Source: Nitrososphaerota archaeon
GTDB lineage: Archaea; Thermoproteota; Nitrososphaeria_A; Caldarchaeales; Calditenuaceae
NCBI GenBank assembly: GCA_041641295.1
Contig: JBEPYO010000001.1
Span: forward strand, 602,776-666,775
Direction: 5' to 3'
Length of the DNA stretch: 64,000 bases
Shown here piece after piece: positions 5,954 through 15,651 of the stretch (the first letter of the stretch is position 1; every line of letters starts with the position of its first letter). Both the position numbers and the translations under genes were made by a program. Below the pieces are notes generated by a model. The model had not been told where the DNA came from. It saw only the letters and a list, made by a program, of their open reading frames with translations, and made no database searches.

Positions 5954-6274
5954 TTAGGCGTATTCCCGCCAAGTGTAGCCGCACTTAGTGCATCTGAAGA
6001 ACTGTGTCATGGGCTCGTCGGCGGATCTTGTCTGGACGCTCCACCAGTAGGCTTCCTGGTTTCCACACTGTGGGCACTGTACGTCGCCGGTCTTCGGCAG
6101 CACCTCCTTCTCAACATCATCGACTATCACTGTTTTCCGCGGCTTCCTCTGTTTGTGGGTGATGATGTCGCCTGTAGGCTTCTTCACATACCCACACTTT
6201 CTACAGACCAGTACTACGCTGTTTGACTTCCGCTCAGTGATTAGGACTGCGTCGCAGCGTGGGCAGAACTCCAT
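5954..6274 (-). CDS. tfs: Transcription factor S / RNA polymerase subunit M (TFIIS-type zinc ribbon)
   Basis: N-terminal CxxC...CxxC and a C-terminal zinc ribbon with QTRSADEPMTQFFRCTKCG. Confidence 0.9.
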   Translation of the reverse strand: MEFCPRCDAVLITERKSNSVVLVCRKCGYVKKPTGDIITHKQRKPRKTVIVDDVEKEVLPKTGDVQCPQCGNQEAYWWSVQTRSADEPMTQFFRCTKCGYTWREYA

Positions 6275-6355
6275 GCCTCATCCTCCACCTCTTACACCGA
6301 GAGAATAGCACCGCACGGTTATTTGATTAACCTTATTCAAGGCCACCCGCCTCTC

Positions 6356-6634
6356 CTATGATAGGAGCTGCTGTATCGACTCTCTCAACCCCTTCGCCCT
6401 TGAGGAGAGTTCGCGTACGCCCTTCAGCAATACGTCGGCGGCTTTATGCCCCTCGCGAGTCCTAAGTATGAACCTTAACGTCCCGATTAGAGGGTGTGTT
6501 AGGGTGACGCCGGCGTATTCAACCTCCTCGAAAGAGTTGAGAACCTCCTGTAGCGAATCAAGGATGCTGAAGTCTATGTCTTTCAGCTCTAGCTCTAAGA
6601 CGTTTTCACCCCTCTCGATTACCTTGACCTCCAG
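6356..6634 (-). CDS. rpoL: DNA-directed RNA polymerase subunit L (Rpb11 homolog). No canonical start codon is present in frame.
   Basis: The minus-frame translation LEVKVIERGENVLELELKDIDFSILDSLQEVLNSFEEVEYAGVTLTHPLIGTLRFILRTREGH... matches RpoL. The frame is open only from 6676. The first in-frame ATG, GTG or TTG is near the C-terminus, so the gene is absent from the ORF track. Confidence 0.75.
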   Translation of the reverse strand: MEVKVIERGENVLELELKDIDFSILDSLQEVLNSFEEVEYAGVTLTHPLIGTLRFILRTREGHKAADVLLKGVRELSSRAKGLRESIQQLLS

Positions 6635-7908: not shown

Positions 7909-8379
7909 TTATTCTTCACTGCTTCGCAGCATCTTCTTAATCTCCGAGGCCACCGATATGCATGCCTTCTCCACACTTTCAGAGAGGCCTGAGCCCTGCT
8001 CAAATCGCTCACCCTCTATGCCGTAGACAAGTATCCTAGCTGGGAGCATCCTGAGGGAGTCAGCCAAGCCGATAATCTCCGGCAAAGTCATGGTGTGTGT
8101 CGACCTCCACGCAGCCGTCTTTGATAGTTTGTCCGTCGAGTCGAGCCTGTGGATGGTTCCTCCACCAGAGAATTTCTCCATGGCATCGACTATGACCAAG
8201 AGGTCTATGTCGCCTGTCAGGTGGTCTAGAAGCTCGGTGAGCGTCTGAAGCCTGATAACCTCTGCACCAGCCTCTCCCGAGAGCAGGTCGGCGACCCTAT
8301 GCCCAGCCCCATCATCACCCCTAAACGTGTTGCCGATACACGCCACCATTACGCGTCTTCTGCGGCTACTCTTCCTCAA
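7909..8379 (-). CDS. hycI: Hydrogenase maturation endopeptidase (HycI/HyaD family)
   Basis: [15 protein letters not shown] motif, 156 aa. It lies immediately downstream of the hydrogenase large subunit with a 14-nt overlap. Confidence 0.8.
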
Positions 8380-9661
8380 TCTCCAGCTTTAGGAAGTGTG
8401 TCGCACAGGAGATGCATGGGTCGTAGTTTCTTACCGCCTGCTCGAACCGCCAGACTGCCTGGCTACGTGGGAGCCTCACTATCTCGGGGGCTAGGGCCCG
8501 GAGGTCCTCCTCAATCCTCTTCTGGTTCTGGGCTGTGGGGGGCACTATCTTGGCTGAGAGTATCCGGCCCTCGCCATCCACGTCGTATCTGTGGTAGAGT
8601 ATGCCTCTCGGAGCCTCAGTGCATCCGCAACCTCTCCCAGCTCTGACCTGCGGCTCAACCCTAGGACTCGACGGCTCAACATATTCGTCGATAATCCTGA
8701 GAGCCTCCTCAAAGGAGTAGTATGTCTCAGCAACTCGCGCGATTATGCTCTTGAACGGGTTCCTGCAAGGTGTCTTAAAGCCGATTCTCCTTAAGGCCCC
8801 TTTTGTGCGGTCGTGGAGCTTGTCATAGTTAAGGTTGATTCTGGAGAGGGGGCCGACCATGTATGAGCCCCTGCCGACTATGTAGGAGTGTAGCGCATTG
8901 GAGTGTGGGACCTGCTCCTCCGCAAAATAGTCCTCGTACTGGTCAACATCAATGTCCAATCCCTTATTCGACACAATCCTTCCCTCGTTCATCGGATACT
9001 CTTCTGGGTGTCTGAGGGAGACGAACTCGTAGTCCTGCTCAAAAGCAGGGAACTCTAGGTCCGCAACCCACTCCAGCAGGTCTTCAACAGTCGCCATGTT
9101 TTCTACTAGTCGCTCCCTCAGCTCCATTAGCTCGCGCTTAGAAGGCACGCGGTAGAACCCACCTACGCATGCTGAGACAGGGTGAATCTCCCGGCCACCC
9201 AGCAGCGAGACTATATCATTTCCCAGCTTCTTCACCTTGAGGGCATTCTTCACTACTCTGGGGTGTTTCTTAGCCATCTTAATTGCGTCGTCGTATCCTA
9301 GGAAGTCGGGTGCGTGGAGGAGGAAGGCGTGGAGCATGTGGCTCTCTATCCACTCACCACAGTAGTAAAGCCTCCTCAGACTCCTCACCGACGGGGCTAT
9401 GGTTACGCCGAAGAGCCTTTCAAAAGCATGCACCGAGCTCATCTGATAAGCCACAGGGCAAATCCCGCAGATCCTAGCAGTTATATCTGGGGCGTCATAG
9501 TACATCCGGCCCACTAGCAGTGCTTCGAAGAGCCTCGGAGGCTCGAATATCCTGAACTTGACGTCCACCACCTCGCGGCCTCTAAGCTTGATGTAGAGCG
9601 CGCCCTCGCCCTCAACCCTGGCTAGGTAGTCCACACGGTATTCCTTCTCCCTAGCAGTCAA
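8366..9661 (-). CDS. hydA: [NiFe] hydrogenase large (alpha) subunit, group 3b / sulfhydrogenase-like
   Basis: N-terminal [19 protein letters not shown] (RxCGxC...H) and C-terminal DPCISCATH nickel-binding motifs. 431 aa, matching the Pyrococcus HydA size. Confidence 0.85.
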
Positions 9662-10431
9662 GCCTCAGCCTCCACCTCCCTAAAGCCAGGCGCCCAAGCG
9701 TTGAAGAGTCTGAAGGCCATGACGACTTCCTCCCGCCTCCTACCCAGCTCTATGAAACGCTTCATTAGTGACTTAGAGTTAAGCGACTCTTTAGGCCCGT
9801 AGCAGCCATAGCATCCCCTCCCATAGGCTGGGCAGATGGCCCCACAGCCTGCATGAGTCACTGGCCCGAGACATGGAACGCCCCGAGCCACCATTACACA
9901 TGCCGTGCCCCTCAGCTTACACTCGACACAGACGCTCTGGTTGGGAATGCTGGGCGCCCTCCCCGAGAGGTACGCCGAAATCACCTCGAGTAGCTGGTAC
10001 TTGTTTATTGGGCAGCCCCGGAGTTCGAAGTCAACCGGCACGTGGTCTGAGATGGGGGTAGACTTGTCCAGCGTCTCGATGTATTCTGGCTTCGGATAGA
10101 CGTATTTCATAAACTCGGCTGAGCCCCTCCAGTTCCTGAGGGCCTGTATCCCGCCTGCTGTCGCGCACGCGCCTATGGTTATGAGTACTCTGCAGTTCTT
10201 CCTGATCTCTTTGATGAGCTCGGCGTCGTGGGGGGTTGTGATGCTTCCCTCTACTAGGCCGATGTCATATGGGCCCTTAACTACTGCACGGCTTGCCTCC
10301 AAGAAGTACGCGATCTCGAATGTCTCGCCAATTGTTAGCAACTCCTCCTCCAAGTCGAGGATGCTTAGCTGGCAGCCATCACATGACGCGAATTTATAGA
10401 CTGCAATCTTTGGCCTTCTCTTCGCCATCAC
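9658..10431 (-). CDS. hydD: [NiFe] hydrogenase small (delta) subunit. The likely start is [20 protein letters not shown] at 10431, rather than 10542.
   Basis: FASCDGCQ and GCPI Fe-S/NiFe small-subunit motifs. A start at 10431 gives a 4-nt overlap with the hydG stop; the listed longer ORF would overlap hydG by 115 nt. Confidence 0.8.
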
Positions 10432-11285
10432 ACCTCCCTCCGCCCGAAGAAGTTTGAGACTTCTGAGAGGCTGAAGACAGGCCCATCCTTGCAGACGAAG
10501 AACGGGCCGAACTGGCAGTGCCCACATATACCGACGCCACACTTCATATTCCTCTCCATAGAGATGAAAATCCTCTCATCTGGAAGCCCCTGATTCTTCA
10601 ACTCCTGCACGGTAAACCTCATCATTATCTCAGGGCCGCAGACGTATGCATAGGTGTTGTTTGGCTCGAGCCTCAAGTATCTGAACAGTGTTGTGACTAC
10701 GCCTATGTATCCGCGCCACTTCTCATCCCCTCTATCTACAGTGACGAGTAGCTGGGTGTCCAGCCTGCTCCTCCAGACACGCAGTTCTTTCTTATAGAGC
10801 AGGTCGGCTGGCGTGCGGGCCCCATAGAGAACATAGAGCTTCCCATACTTCTCCCTGTTTCTTATTATGTGTTGTATTGCCGGTCTTAGGGGTGCTAAAC
10901 CTATTCCACCCCCAACAATAATTACGTCCTGACCCTCAGCCTCTCTGAGCGGCCACCCCCTACCGAAGGGCCCCCTCAACCCCACGCTCGAACCTATCCG
11001 CGCCGTCGTCAAGGCCTTGGTCACAGGCCCCACCGCCCTCACGGTATGCTCCAGTGTCTGCCCGTTGGAGGAGGCTCCGCTTATGGAGATGGGGACCTCG
11101 CCCACGCCATAGGCGTAGAGCATGTTGAACTGGCCGGGGCTGAAAGCTATCTCGCCACGCCTGAGCGGACGAAGCCTAATGGTGTACGTGTCAGGCGTCT
11201 CTTTATTCCGTCCAACCAATTGGCACCAATCAATCCTGAACGGCTCTAGAGCGGTGGCCGCTCCGAGACTCTGCTCAGTCATCAC
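10428..11285 (-). CDS. hydG: Hydrogenase gamma subunit (FAD/NAD(P)-binding oxidoreductase with a 2Fe-2S cluster, AsrB-like)
   Basis: Ferredoxin-NADP reductase-like fold motifs with the C-terminal [10 protein letters not shown] 2Fe-2S motif. 285 aa. Confidence 0.8.
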
Positions 11286-11767
11286 ACCGCACCAGTCCTC
11301 GGCTCACCGTAGATATCCGCGAGACGCAGCCTAGCAGCCCTAAGCCTGTCAGCGACAACCATCACTATGCGCCGGTAGACCTCGTAGCCGAATTCGATGT
11401 CGCTCTCCATCATCCGCAACATTTTCTCACTGTCGATCGAGATCGCCATCGTGTTCTCAACGGCTACCGCGCCGGCGGTCTTCTTGAAGGGCTCTATGAG
11501 TGAGGACCAGCCCAGAACCTCCCCGCTGCCAATGGTCTCGAACCTGAACTCACCCCGCGGCGGAATATTGAAGTAAAGAGCTACAAGGCCATAGACTATC
11601 AGGTACAGTTTTTTATGCACTTCTCCCTCGCTGAATATCCGCTGCCCCGCTGTGAACCGAACAATGCTAGCGATTGATGCGAGCTCCTTGACCTTCTCCG
11701 CCCGCATGCCCTTGGTGAAGGGGTGGTCGCTCAGCAGTGTTAAGAGCTCGACCTGCTGGCTACTCAT
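11282..11767 (-). CDS. Cyclic nucleotide-binding (CAP effector) domain protein with no DNA-binding domain, embedded in the hydrogenase operon
   Basis: The cNMP-binding beta-roll pattern is present: [20 protein letters not shown]...[12 protein letters not shown]...[13 protein letters not shown]. There are 4-nt overlaps with hydB upstream and hydG downstream. Confidence 0.7.
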
Positions 11768-12948
11768 GTCGCACTCACCTCCAGCACCCTCTGCCTAATC
11801 TTCGCCGCCTCCTCCGTAATATCTATCCCCACTGGGCACCAAGTGATGCACCTGCCACAGCCCACACAGCCCATGACGCCGAACTGGTCAATCCACGTCG
11901 CGAGCTTGTGTGTAAACCACTGACGATACCTGCTCATCCTACTAGACCTGATGGGGCCTCCGTGGATATAGGAGAAGTCGGCATTGAAGCATGAGTCCCA
12001 TCTCCTCCAACGCTCAGCAACATTGCCCGAAAGAGTTGTAACCTCCTCAACAGTCGTGCAGAAGCATGTGGGGCAGACAAGTGTACAGTTAGCGCATGCG
12101 AGACACCTCTCAGCAACCTCTGCGTAGACCGGGCTCTCGAGGTTTTTGTACAACAAGTCCTTCAGACCGTTCACGTCCAGACCCTTCCTAAACAATGTTC
12201 GAGCCCTCTCAATCCTCGCAGCGGCCTCTGAGACTTCCTCGTCAGTCGCCCTCCGCGCACCGATACGCTCTAGGAGGCTCTTGCCAGCACTCGAACCCGC
12301 CTTAGCTACGAAGTAGTGTACACCATCGCCCACTACCTCAGTGAGGCCTATATCGTAGCCCGACCCCGCCTCAGGCCCCGTGCCGACGGATAGGCAGAAG
12401 CAGTTCTCACCCGGCTCGGTACAGTTGACCGCAACTATGAAGACCTCGCGCCTCATTGCCGAGTAGACTGGGTCCACGTATGGGCCGCCCAGCAACACCT
12501 TGTCTAGGACCGAGATGGCGGCGAGCTCACACCCCCTAACCCCTATGAAGGCCAGCTTCTTCCCCAACACGTTGTTGGGGGTGACTTCACCTTTTCTCGA
12601 AACTGTGAAGAGTTTGACGCGGGGTGGATATAGAAACCTCTTCCACGAGTGTGGGCCTACTACGAAGCCGAAGAACGCCTTATCACCTCTCTCCTCTAGC
12701 CTGTAGTATCCTGGCCCCTGCCTATCCCTCAGCCCCACTGGTAGCTGAGAGGCTGACTCAATCTCATCGTACACTATGGCACCCTCCCTGACTACTGGCC
12801 CAATAACAGAGTATCCAAGCCCTCGAAGAGCTGTGATTAGCTCGCCGAGAAGCGGGGGGTCGAGAAGATAATGATCGCTTTGATCTCTAAGTTCCCCCAT
12901 CACATGTTTTAGAGTATTGAAAATCATATAAATATATCGTGCCTTCAT
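11764..12948 (-). CDS. hydB: Hydrogenase beta subunit (4Fe-4S, AsrA-like). An alternative start at 12900 (MGELRD...) would place a TATA box inside the listed first 16 codons.
   Basis: Multiple CxxCxxCxxxCP ferredoxin motifs ([16 protein letters not shown]; [16 protein letters not shown]). It is the first gene of the hydBGDA-type order. Confidence 0.8.
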
Positions 12949-12975
12949 GCTGAAGGTCTATGCTTTCATGCTGAA
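12944..12975. promoter_or_regulatory. Two copies of the inverted-repeat motif TTCA-N3-TGAA (TTCATGCTGAA) spaced 21 nt apart, upstream of hydB. A candidate operator.
   Basis: The sequence is read directly. Copies lie at 12944-12954 and 12965-12975 within the 65-bp AT-rich gap between the mrp stop and the hydB start. Confidence 0.4.
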
Positions 12976-13013: not shown

Positions 13014-13793
13014 CTAGTCTACACTTAGGCCCGCATTCCTGAGAACGTGTTTGAGCGCATCAGCGAACCGCGTCGAAAGAAGCTCATCCCTCCCCAGCCT
13101 GCCGCTCCGCGAACTCAGCAACGGGTCAAAAGGAATCTCTCCTAGAAACGCAACGCCTTTAGCACGCGCCAGCTCCTTCGTAGGACTCTCAGGGTCGCTG
13201 GTGGACATGTTCTCTACGAGGCCGATTATTTTTAGAGACGCCGACCTCAGAATATCTATGAGTCTTCCGGCCACGTTTACTGCCAAGTGCGTCGGCGTGG
13301 TAATCACGATTGCTCCGCCACTCCTCTTAACGTATTTCGAGATCGTGAGAAGTTCGTCCCCAGTCCCCGGAGGCATGTCTACTAACAGGTAGTCGAGCCT
13401 GCCGAAGGCTGTTAGGGCCAGCATCTCCTTCACGATCTCCTCCTTGGCCTGCCCTGTTAGGGGGAGGGGCCTACCCTTCGAGAAAAGGTCGATGGACATA
13501 ACCTTCAACCCCTCCACCACCGGCGGGACCAGACCCTCTCCCGACTCGACAGGATTGTCCTCAACACCTAGTAGTAGGCATGAAGAGGGGCCATGCAGGT
13601 CGAGGTCGAGCAGCCCTGTCCTATTGGATGCCCGTGAGAGCATGAGGGCGGCGGTGGCGGCTATTAGGCTCTTCCCCACACCACCCTTCCCGCCCGTGAC
13701 CAAGATTATTTGAGAGATTTTTCCTATGTTCTCCTCGATGAGGGAGTCTCTGTAGTCGAGCCGGCCCCCACTATCCCTCGACGCATACGACAT
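13014..13793 (-). CDS. Mrp/MinD/NBP35-family P-loop ATPase (ApbC-like); likely hydrogenase Ni-insertion partner of HypA
   Basis: ILVTGGKGGVGKS deviant Walker A, 259 aa. It overlaps hypA by 23 nt. Confidence 0.8.
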   Translation of the reverse strand: MSYASRDSGGRLDYRDSLIEENIGKISQIILVTGGKGGVGKSLIAATAALMLSRASNRTGLLDLDLHGPSSCLLLGVEDNPVESGEGLVPPVVEGLKVMSIDLFSKGRPLPLTGQAKEEIVKEMLALTAFGRLDYLLVDMPPGTGDELLTISKYVKRSGGAIVITTPTHLAVNVAGRLIDILRSASLKIIGLVENMSTSDPESPTKELARAKGVAFLGEIPFDPLLSSRSGRLGRDELLSTRFADALKHVLRNAGLSVD

Positions 13794-14178
13794 CTCTCAC
13801 ACTCACACCCCGACCCGAGACAATCCTCAAGTCTAGGCTTCCACACCACTTGCAGGCCGCATATGACGCTATCAGATCTGGGAGAAAATGTATCATCTCC
13901 CTCTCCTCCTCGCTGAGACCAGAGATGGCCTCGCCGAAAGTCATAGTGTGGCCGCATGAGCCGCAGCTAATCATAGCAGGCTCAATCTCGATGGAGAACT
14001 CTGCCCCCTTGACCGCGCTGGCCGCGATAAGCCTCTCCAAAGCCTCACGAAGCACACTTGTGTCGAGCATACTCAGCTCACCGACCAAGACCCTAAAGCT
14101 CCTGACACCACAGCCAGACTTTAACGAAAAGTCTCTAACCGACTCGACAACACCCCTCGCGATCGCATACTCATGCAT
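13771..14178 (-). CDS. hypA: Hydrogenase nickel incorporation protein HypA
   Basis: The MHE N-terminus, CGSCGH...CKWCG zinc-finger cysteines and 135-aa length fit HypA. Confidence 0.85.
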   Translation of the reverse strand: MHEYAIARGVVESVRDFSLKSGCGVRSFRVLVGELSMLDTSVLREALERLIAASAVKGAEFSIEIEPAMISCGSCGHTMTFGEAISGLSEEEREMIHFLPDLIASYAACKWCGSLDLRIVSGRGVSVRDVVCVEG

Positions 14179-14490: not shown

Positions 14491-15651
14491 ATGTCTGGAG
14501 AGAGCTGCCCACGCGTAGCGGAGCCTGTAGCAGGGCAGGGAACAGGAGGACTAAATCCCGGTCTTCTCAACGAGCCCGAGGACCAAACAGGGAAAGGATT
14601 AGGAAGAGTCCGGCAGAGAATGACACCGGAGGAAAAGAAGAAGCTCATGGATGTGCTGAAGAGGGAGGCTCTGAGAGGGCTAGGATACGTGAGAATATGG
14701 CGGATGTTAAGGAAGGATGGGGTAAATGTATCGAGGCGGACCGTAGAATACTGGTATCGCAAGTTTTTTCCAGAGAGATTGGGGAGAAGGGGAAAATACC
14801 TTCCACGCGAATTGAGGATAACGCTGTACGAGGAAGTCCTGAGGCTGAGGAGGCAGGGATTAGGTTACAAGAAGATTAGGCGGAGGATTAAAGAATTATA
14901 TGATATCACGCTTGCACCCGCGGTAATTGTTGATTGGTGTAGAGGAATCCATACACCATATGGCGGAATACGAATTCCTACAGTAGACTACCTGAAGCCA
15001 TCCCCAGAGCTAGCTTATGTCATAGGTGTTGTGTGCGGGGATGGATCAGCTGTTAAAACAAGGGGGAGAAGCGGTGAATATGTTATCGGATCTCAAGTTA
15101 AGGATCGAGAGTTTAGCGAGAGATTCGCAGAATGCCTCGGTCGAATACTGAATAGGAGCCCGCCAACGCCGATACTCGTTAGAGGTAAGTTTCAGGTTTG
15201 TGTAAGATCGAGAACTCTTTACCAACTTCTCCGAAAACCAATCGACATAAACAGGATAAAGAATTTCACGGAGCATTGTGAAGACTGCATGAGAAGTTTC
15301 CTAAAAGGCTTCTTCGATAGCGAAGGATCAGTAAGTAAGGAGGGGGAAATTCGCTGTGACAACTCAGACAAACAACTCCTAAACTATGTCAAGACCCTCC
15401 TGAATCGTTTATGCATCGATGTAACAGGGCCGCACTTAGGTGTAAAGAAAGATACGCCCATCTTTAATAAGGATATGCAGAGAATATACATGAGAAAGAA
15501 AGAAGTATATTATCTCAATATCAGGGCTCCATATAGGCTAAAGTATTACGAGCTTGTTGGATTCTCTATTCGAAAGAAACAACAACGAATGGAAAACTAT
15601 TTCAGGAGAAGAGGACTACTGGGGGGTCGCCTACCAGACCACCCCCTATAG
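14491..15651 (+). CDS. HTH-LAGLIDADG homing-endonuclease-like protein, paralog 2
   Basis: LAGLIDADG motifs PELAYVIGVVCGDGSAV and FLKGFFDSEGSVSK with N-terminal HTH-like segments (LGYVRIWRMLRKDGVNVSRRTV; LGYKKIRRRIKELYDI). It is collinear with ORF 4766..5926. Confidence 0.75.
   Translation: MSGESCPRVAEPVAGQGTGGLNPGLLNEPEDQTGKGLGRVRQRMTPEEKKKLMDVLKREALRGLGYVRIWRMLRKDGVNVSRRTVEYWYRKFFPERLGRRGKYLPRELRITLYEEVLRLRRQGLGYKKIRRRIKELYDITLAPAVIVDWCRGIHTPYGGIRIPTVDYLKPSPELAYVIGVVCGDGSAVKTRGRSGEYVIGSQVKDREFSERFAECLGRILNRSPPTPILVRGKFQVCVRSRTLYQLLRKPIDINRIKNFTEHCEDCMRSFLKGFFDSEGSVSKEGEIRCDNSDKQLLNYVKTLLNRLCIDVTGPHLGVKKDTPIFNKDMQRIYMRKKEVYYLNIRAPYRLKYYELVGFSIRKKQQRMENYFRRRGLLGGRLPDHPL

Follow-up and report, generated by a model that had tools for sequence, protein, structure and literature searches.

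Why should the gene for a small protein with a cyclic-nucleotide-binding (cNMP) fold lie inside a [NiFe]-hydrogenase operon, between the genes for the beta and gamma subunits? The question is raised by a stretch of 64,000 nucleotides from a Nitrososphaerota archaeon of the Caldarchaeales (GenBank assembly GCA_041641295.1, contig JBEPYO010000001.1, positions 602,776 to 666,775 of the forward strand; hereafter, the window), in which such a gene, designated gene X and encoding a product of 161 amino acids (X), was found on the minus strand at 11282..11767. The answer that we favour, and regard as rather probable, is that a large clade of group 3b hydrogenases has X as a conserved fifth component, bound to the beta/gamma module, and that the CAP fold of X works as a sensor or docking module for something other than a cyclic nucleotide.

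Gene X and the operon that carries it

The operon reads HypA-Mrp-beta-X-gamma-delta-alpha-HycI on the minus strand. Homologues of the alpha, delta, gamma and beta subunits and a HycI-type protease stand in this one operon, and by its gene content it was assigned to the group 3b (sulfhydrogenase-type, NAD(P)-linked, cytoplasmic) [NiFe]-hydrogenases. The genes flanking X gave ShyB/HydB, ShyC/HydG, HydD/ShyD and ShyA/HydA as their best NCBIfam matches, at scores under the equivalog cut-offs (very high, 460-880 bits), and these matches bear out the original prediction of a sulfhydrogenase-type beta-gamma-delta-alpha operon with one extra gene.

Gene X is an open reading frame (ORF) running from ATG to TGA, and its description as a stand-alone cNMP-binding-fold protein draws on Pfam, AlphaFold, Foldseek, motif conservation and the ratio of nonsynonymous to synonymous substitution rates (dN/dS). 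PF00027 (cNMP_binding) was the sole Pfam match (52.1 bits against a curated cut-off of 27.5 bits, E=6.4e-14, residues 36-123) and was covered over profile positions 2-89 of 89; NCBIfam yielded no more than weak, partial matches, all to cNMP domains that belong to larger proteins.

At the upstream junction (...GGAGGTGAgtgcgacATGAgt), the beta stop codon TGA and the X start codon ATG share 4 nt (ATGA), with a Shine-Dalgarno sequence (GGAGGTGA) 7 nt upstream of the X ATG. At the X/gamma junction (gcggtGTGATGact), the overlap is 4 nt (GTGA) if gamma starts at GTG, or 1 nt (TGATG) if it starts at ATG. ATGA overlaps had been proposed on both sides of gene X; the upstream one and the tight coupling were recovered, and the downstream overlap is of the GTGA or TGATG form instead. 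The gamma/delta (TGATG) and delta/alpha (4 nt) junctions are of the same type, and X is therefore packed exactly as the catalytic subunits are.

Orthologues of X with 64-93% identity were found in other Caldarchaeales, including Ca. Caldarchaeum subterraneum, whose protein (76% identity by alignment, 79% by BLASTP) is annotated as a 'Crp/Fnr family transcriptional regulator'; the relatives of the window thus lie in the Caldarchaeales and not, as first supposed, in the Pyrodictiaceae or Desulfurococcaceae. Measured against three Caldarchaeal relatives with X amino acid identities of 93%, 84% and 76%, the dN/dS of X was 0.051, 0.061 and 0.057, and the same comparisons gave 0.063-0.068 for beta and 0.075-0.089 for gamma. 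Given the orthologues and a dN/dS of 0.05-0.06, gene X is no chance ORF, and the purifying selection on it is strong, like that on the catalytic subunits. A decaying insert under relaxed selection was considered and was ruled out by the dN/dS of about 0.05.

Distribution of gene X

Relatives were collected by a scan of 185,579 GTDB species genomes anchored on the alpha subunit, which gave 596 confirmed relatives, and the best 80 loci were kept and annotated by phmmer and hmmsearch with the window proteins and a hidden Markov model (HMM) of the X family. Among these best 80 of 596, the order beta-X-gamma-delta-alpha was found in 70 of the 74 loci (95%) that span beta to gamma. Carriers of X belong to the Acidobacteriota, Bacteroidota, Ignavibacteriota, anammox Planctomycetota, Zixibacteria, Nitrospinota, Chloroflexota, SAR324, Binatia, Sumerlaeota, Bathyarchaeia and others, and Ca. 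C. subterraneum and other Caldarchaeales have the identical HypA-Mrp-beta-X-gamma-delta-alpha-HycI block. The median gap is -4 nt both between beta and X and between X and gamma, and the genes overlap in 44/75 operons at the former junction and in 57/75 at the latter. X is thus neither missing from all related operons nor under relaxed selection. The extra gene, at first taken to be unusual, is part of the arrangement that most of the 80 closest relatives share.

The same five genes were found on plasmids of the cultured Burkholderia thailandensis and Rhodococcus sp. BH4, annotated in order as 4Fe-4S, cyclic nucleotide-binding, FAD/NAD(P)-binding, oxidoreductase and large subunit proteins. In these two plasmids and in the 70 scanned operons alike, a member of the X family occupies the same slot, between the 4Fe-4S (beta) and FAD/NAD(P) (gamma) genes. 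The gene has also been mentioned in passing, without experiments, in Frankia, as a 'small transcriptional regulator' (PMC11879354), in Rhodococcus equi (PMC13332983), and in an alphaproteobacterial methanotroph, where it was named HoxI (PMC12319191); for these three, the placement between beta and gamma is as given in the papers only. The locus numbers of Mycobacterium smegmatis Hyd3 (MSMEG_3931 for beta, MSMEG_3930 for gamma; PMC2799521) leave no number for X, as far as the numbering goes, the DNA being unchecked. The arrangement is accordingly widespread and already annotated, and what the window contributes is an archaeal member of a known, uncharacterised kind.

The pairwise distances measured on X correlate with those measured on each of the four subunits (r=0.45-0.55 for alpha, beta, gamma and delta), and beta and gamma correlate with each other within this range (r=0.48). 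Caldarchaeal X is unusually divergent, with about 35-37% identity to bacterial X, at 61% for alpha, 53% for beta, 55% for gamma and 65% for delta; in a rough neighbour-joining (NJ) tree it groups with an Anaerolineae clade on a short branch. As a separate observation, a Verrucomicrobiae locus (L085:9346-11448, minus strand) carries an alpha homologue without beta, gamma or delta upstream, and two cNMP-domain ORFs lie downstream of it on the opposite strand.

Members of the X family also occur outside hydrogenase operons. Stand-alone cNMP-fold proteins of Anaerolineae are 36-42% identical to X and share a GWSS...RKTAGA cassette with Caldarchaeal X. Their gene (L003-L005 and L092-L094; at about 6001-6480, or 2586-3059 in L092) always lies about 19 bp after an operon for HdrD-like, EtfB, EtfA and membrane Fe-S-CCG proteins, and always precedes genes for a Cache-histidine kinase and a response regulator. 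These cases come from one lineage and were counted as one independent observation, in which the X family adjoins another flavin/Fe-S enzyme system.

Predicted fold and pocket

An AlphaFold2 model of X was built on 68 sequences (mean predicted local distance difference test score, pLDDT, 91.6; predicted template modelling score, pTM, 0.85). N-terminal helices are followed by a beta-roll, a short cassette helix (87-90), and helices 113-122 and 124-153, the latter (the C-helix, 30 residues) being the last helix of the model. The eight-stranded beta-roll, N-terminal helix, and B and C helices of the CAP effector-domain architecture are all present. When the model was searched against PDB with Foldseek, the cAMP-binding domains of GlxR and Mycobacterium tuberculosis CRP came out on top (E ~1e-13, template modelling (TM) score 0.71-0.75, about 0.74 to GlxR/CRP), and the TM scores to solved cNMP domains were 0.71-0.77. 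By this model, X folds as a CAP-type cNMP-binding domain with a beta-roll, in agreement with the original prediction.

The same prediction held that X consists of an effector domain with no helix-turn-helix (HTH), and this also stood. No HTH family, and no winged-HTH DNA-binding domain, was matched in X by Pfam, and the protein ends 8 residues past the long C-helix and therefore has no DNA-binding domain. For the effector domain and C-helix of X, no sequence or structure matched better than the CRP/FNR factors GlxR and M. tuberculosis CRP; they differ from it in that X is without the winged-helix DNA-binding domain and without the cAMP-contacting Glu and Arg, and its gene is tied to an enzyme operon.

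Proteins that bind cyclic nucleotides do so through a phosphate-binding cassette, in which Gly-Glu contacts the ribose and Arg-Ser/Thr the cyclic phosphate. In X the cassette reads G86-W87-S88...K96-T97, and in a HMMER alignment to the cAMP-binding GlxR, G86-W87 stands opposite Gly-Glu and K96-T97 opposite Arg-Thr. When residues were counted over 75 operon-linked X proteins, G86 was present in all 75, W87 in 72/75 and S88 in 73/75, and position 96 was Trp in 59/75 and Lys in 8/75 and was never conserved as Arg. The bacterial consensus is GWSWLxPPYxWxFDARA, and the canonical pair of Gly-Glu and Arg-Ser/Thr is absent from X. Since the cassette Glu is replaced by Trp and the Arg by Trp or Lys, canonical cyclic-nucleotide binding is unlikely, and another ligand, or a protein-contact role of the pocket surface, is more plausible on these alignments.

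These counts bear on the proposal, contained in the original prediction, that X is a true cyclic-nucleotide receptor and an allosteric switch by which cAMP, cGMP or a cyclic dinucleotide would control the hydrogenase. The fold and the closest solved relatives, the cAMP-binding domains of GlxR and CRP, speak for such a receptor, as does the retention of Lys96-Thr97 in Caldarchaeal X at the Arg-Thr/Ser position. Against it, the Glu of Gly-Glu is Trp almost throughout the family and Trp or Lys predominates at the Arg position, and the bacterial GWSWLxPPYxWxF forms an aromatic patch and not a phosphate cassette. Control by a cyclic nucleotide was therefore not upheld, and we consider the receptor improbable.

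Two further features of the family were recorded. Three cysteines, at positions corresponding to 32, 115 and 120 of the window X, are conserved (85-88%) in the operon-linked X proteins of bacteria. Caldarchaeal X has none and carries KKTA in the cassette, at the place of the bacterial WxF.

Fusions of beta with X and operons with two X genes

Fusions were sought by a profile search of 1.84 billion representatives. The protein P0328 (542 aa) carries an X domain at residues 391-540, and residues 1-373 align with the window beta at 48% identity (E=4e-130). The fusion is retained in P0343 (542 aa), from another assembly, and in at least 11 further 90%-identity clusters (P0346-P0356; 539-546 aa, PF17179+PF00027) that are 49-76% identical to P0328, so that beta-X fusions occur in about a dozen lineages, counted as 90%-identity clusters. 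Two candidates, L096 (720-aa product) and L097, in which the delta and alpha genes are broken or missing, were excluded as evidence.

A complete operon with a fusion (L095:6001-8184) reads [beta-X], a second free X-family gene, gamma, delta, alpha, HycI, HypF, and both of its X copies match the X HMM (3e-66 and 6e-53); the combination of a fusion with a second free copy fits a two-copy (dimeric) X. Two X-family genes were also found in a Chthonomonadaceae locus (L073; 4220-4681 and 5792-6325), of which one precedes beta and the other separates beta from gamma. The fusions, the double X genes of these two loci and the CRP-like C-helix together suggest a dimeric X that is docked on beta.

The slot of gene X between beta and gamma, its coupling and its strong conservation would fit equally well a dedicated chaperone, one that takes part only transiently in the assembly or maturation of the beta/gamma module (loading Fe-S clusters or FAD, or holding beta until gamma arrives) and stays outside the finished enzyme. 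We know of no case in which a cNMP fold serves as a cofactor-insertion chaperone, and the beta-X fusions, kept down to 49% identity, imply that X stays on mature beta in those lineages. That HoxI, the small cNMP-fold protein of the Cupriavidus necator soluble hydrogenase, itself easily leaves that enzyme (PMC3189943) is in favour of a transient factor, which we nevertheless judge unlikely. A stoichiometric accessory subunit, which the original prediction preferred to an inserted regulator, is favoured by the position in 70/74 loci, the overlaps, the selection and the beta-X fusions.

Comparison with HoxI and with the Pyrococcus enzyme

HoxI sits as a homodimer on the diaphorase module of the C. 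necator soluble hydrogenase and supplies a site for activation by NADPH (PMC3702609). The hoxI gene of C. necator (Ralstonia eutropha) H16 (pHG1, PHG093) encodes 167 aa. High salt and alkaline pH cause the loss of HoxI from its enzyme. Like X, HoxI is a small stand-alone cNMP-fold protein without a DNA-binding domain that is encoded in a structural hydrogenase operon, and its cassette (GELGFIDQTPHSLSVRA) lacks the canonical Arg, as that of X does; HoxI keeps Gly-Glu, whereas X has Gly-Trp. The hosts also differ, being group 3d (HoxFUYH), with the gene after hoxW, for HoxI, and group 3b (beta/gamma/delta/alpha), with the gene between beta and gamma, for X.

X was considered as an orthologue of HoxI, and this was rejected (phmmer, 9.5 bits; BLASTP, E=0.005, 23% identity over 66 aa). 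The probability given by hhalign for X and HoxI was 94%, HoxI appeared as a distant outgroup in the rough NJ tree, and X is nearer to GlxR (44 bits) than to HoxI (9.5 bits by phmmer). The similarity of the two is at the level of the domain only. By sequence, then, X lies outside the HoxI family and works at most like HoxI.

Among solved structures, the beta and gamma queries led to a single relative, Pyrococcus furiosus sulfhydrogenase I (PDB 9nez/9nf0). Its beta, gamma, delta and alpha subunits are homologous to those of the window, and it has these four subunits and no cNMP-domain subunit; X gave no match to the 9nez chains, and no paper on the 9nez structure was found in the literature. The gene order of P. 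furiosus hydBGDA is that of the window without X.

The favoured explanation and the points against it

In the explanation that we prefer, the synthesis of X would keep pace with that of beta and gamma. Two copies of X, paired by way of the long C-terminal helix, would sit on the electron-transfer ('diaphorase-like') module formed by beta and gamma, most likely touching beta. Its CAP/cNMP-binding fold would serve as a sensor or docking module and not as a cyclic-nucleotide receptor, the residues for gripping the ribose (Glu) and the cyclic phosphate (Arg) being gone from its pocket. If HoxI2 of the C. necator soluble hydrogenase is taken as a guide, X would have a small molecule of another kind as its ligand and, by binding it, would tune the enzyme or bring it back into activity; the leading guess for the ligand is a pyridine nucleotide such as NADPH.

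Several points weigh against this explanation. X is absent from four operons (L044, L059, L068 and L076; three Chloroflexota and one Bryobacteraceae), in which beta is followed directly by gamma. It was considered whether X is hidden as a fusion in these four, and this was rejected, as there was no match to the X HMM and no room between beta and gamma. Judging from these four gene orders, the core enzyme can exist without X, and X is dispensable or has been lost in some lineages. To our knowledge, the group 3b enzymes that have been purified or solved are those of Thermococcales only, all of them without X. X is no sequence orthologue of HoxI, and the functional analogy is therefore indirect. 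The Anaerolineae placement, between a redox operon and two-component genes, is also compatible with a signalling role. Finally, Caldarchaeal X keeps Lys-Thr where cNMP binders have Arg-Thr/Ser, and a phosphate-containing ligand, even an atypically bound cyclic nucleotide, could be envisaged for it.

Upstream region and neighbouring genes

Two identical 11-mers (TTCAGCATGAA, of the form TTCA-N3-TGAA) lie upstream of beta on the minus strand at 12965-12975 and 12944-12954, 21 bp apart, directly upstream of a TATA-like sequence (ATATATTTATAT, 12926-12937). The beta start given by ORF calling (12948) falls inside the second copy. The pair had been put forward as an operator, and its presence was confirmed, with no matches to TTCA-N3-TGAA beyond these two in the 64-kb window; conservation was not, the pair not being found upstream of beta in four related loci (L001, L002, L090 and L006). 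It is possibly a regulator site or a promoter element, as an unconfirmed local feature.

The motif, upstream of the operon, speaks for a reading in which X would be a transcription-related regulator that acts through a partner DNA-binding protein, perhaps at this tandem pair of palindromic half-sites. The database names and the description of the Frankia gene (PMC11879354) point in the same direction, as do the histidine kinase and response regulator genes next to the Anaerolineae paralogues. Set against this are the missing DNA-binding domain of X, the overlap of its gene with structural genes on both sides across many phyla, the dozen or so lineages in which it is fused to the Fe-S subunit, and the lack of conservation of the motif in related Caldarchaeales, and we hold a regulator of this kind to be very improbable.

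The remaining genes of the operon, all on the minus strand, were assigned as follows. A HypA nickel metallochaperone (13771..14178; Pfam) is followed by a Mrp/NUBPL-type P-loop nucleoside triphosphatase for Fe-S/Ni delivery (13014..13793), which is kept upstream in Caldarchaeales. The beta subunit (11764..12948) is a HydB/ShyB/AsrA-like Fe-S protein with Fer4_22 (PDB 9nez_B, E=1.6e-36); the length of its relatives (375-380 aa) makes M17 at 12900 (378 aa) the probable true start. The gamma subunit (10428..11285) is a HydG/ShyC/AsrB-like FAD/NAD(P)-binding protein with [2Fe-2S] (PDB 9nez_C, E=3e-47). The delta (small) subunit (9658..10428; Oxidored_q6, 256 aa; Pfam and NCBIfam), with relatives of 253-259 aa, was taken to start at the ATG at 10428, with GGAGGGAGGTG upstream and the TGATG junction with gamma; the mechanical delta ORF (9658-10542, 294 aa, 38 codons further into gamma) was rejected as an ORF-calling extension, the likely start being the ATG at 10428.

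The alpha (large, [NiFe]) subunit (8366..9661) ends in a C-terminal DPCISCATH, and its two CxxC pairs, in RICGIC (C65, C68) and DPCISC (C416, C419), are invariant in the alignment, as expected of the NiFe site. One database entry is 100% identical to alpha, and relatives at 83-93% are labelled Nitrososphaerota or Caldarchaeum. A HycI-type hydrogenase maturation protease (7909..8379; Pfam and NCBIfam) closes the operon. Adjoining the hydrogenase/hyp cluster, a free-standing ORF of 386 aa with LAGLIDADG_3 and N-terminal HTH-like domains was found at 14491-15651 on the plus strand.

Implications for group 3b hydrogenases

In soils, sediments and hot springs, few hydrogenases are more widespread than those of group 3b. 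Inferences of fermentative H2 production and redox balancing are drawn from them, and the Pyrococcus enzyme, with its four subunits, serves as the model for their biochemistry. Should the majority of them have a sensor-like X as an extra subunit, their cofactor specificity, activation and regulation may depart from the Pyrococcus model and, if so, heterologous expression for biotechnology should take in the X gene. The case would also show the CAP fold in use as an enzyme subunit with a remodelled pocket, and the question of the X ligand is open to direct test in cultured Burkholderia, Rhodococcus and Frankia.

More tentatively, as a possibility that we would not yet lean on, the typical group 3b enzyme outside the Thermococcales would have five components, in which a 'GWS-motif' CAP-fold dimer on beta senses a non-cyclic ligand or the redox state and gates activity. 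The dimer would have been recruited independently of HoxI in group 3d, and other flavin/Fe-S complexes, such as the Etf/HdrD-like one of the Anaerolineae, would make use of its relatives. If this is true, X would represent a general and so far unrecognised class of regulatory subunit for soluble redox enzymes.

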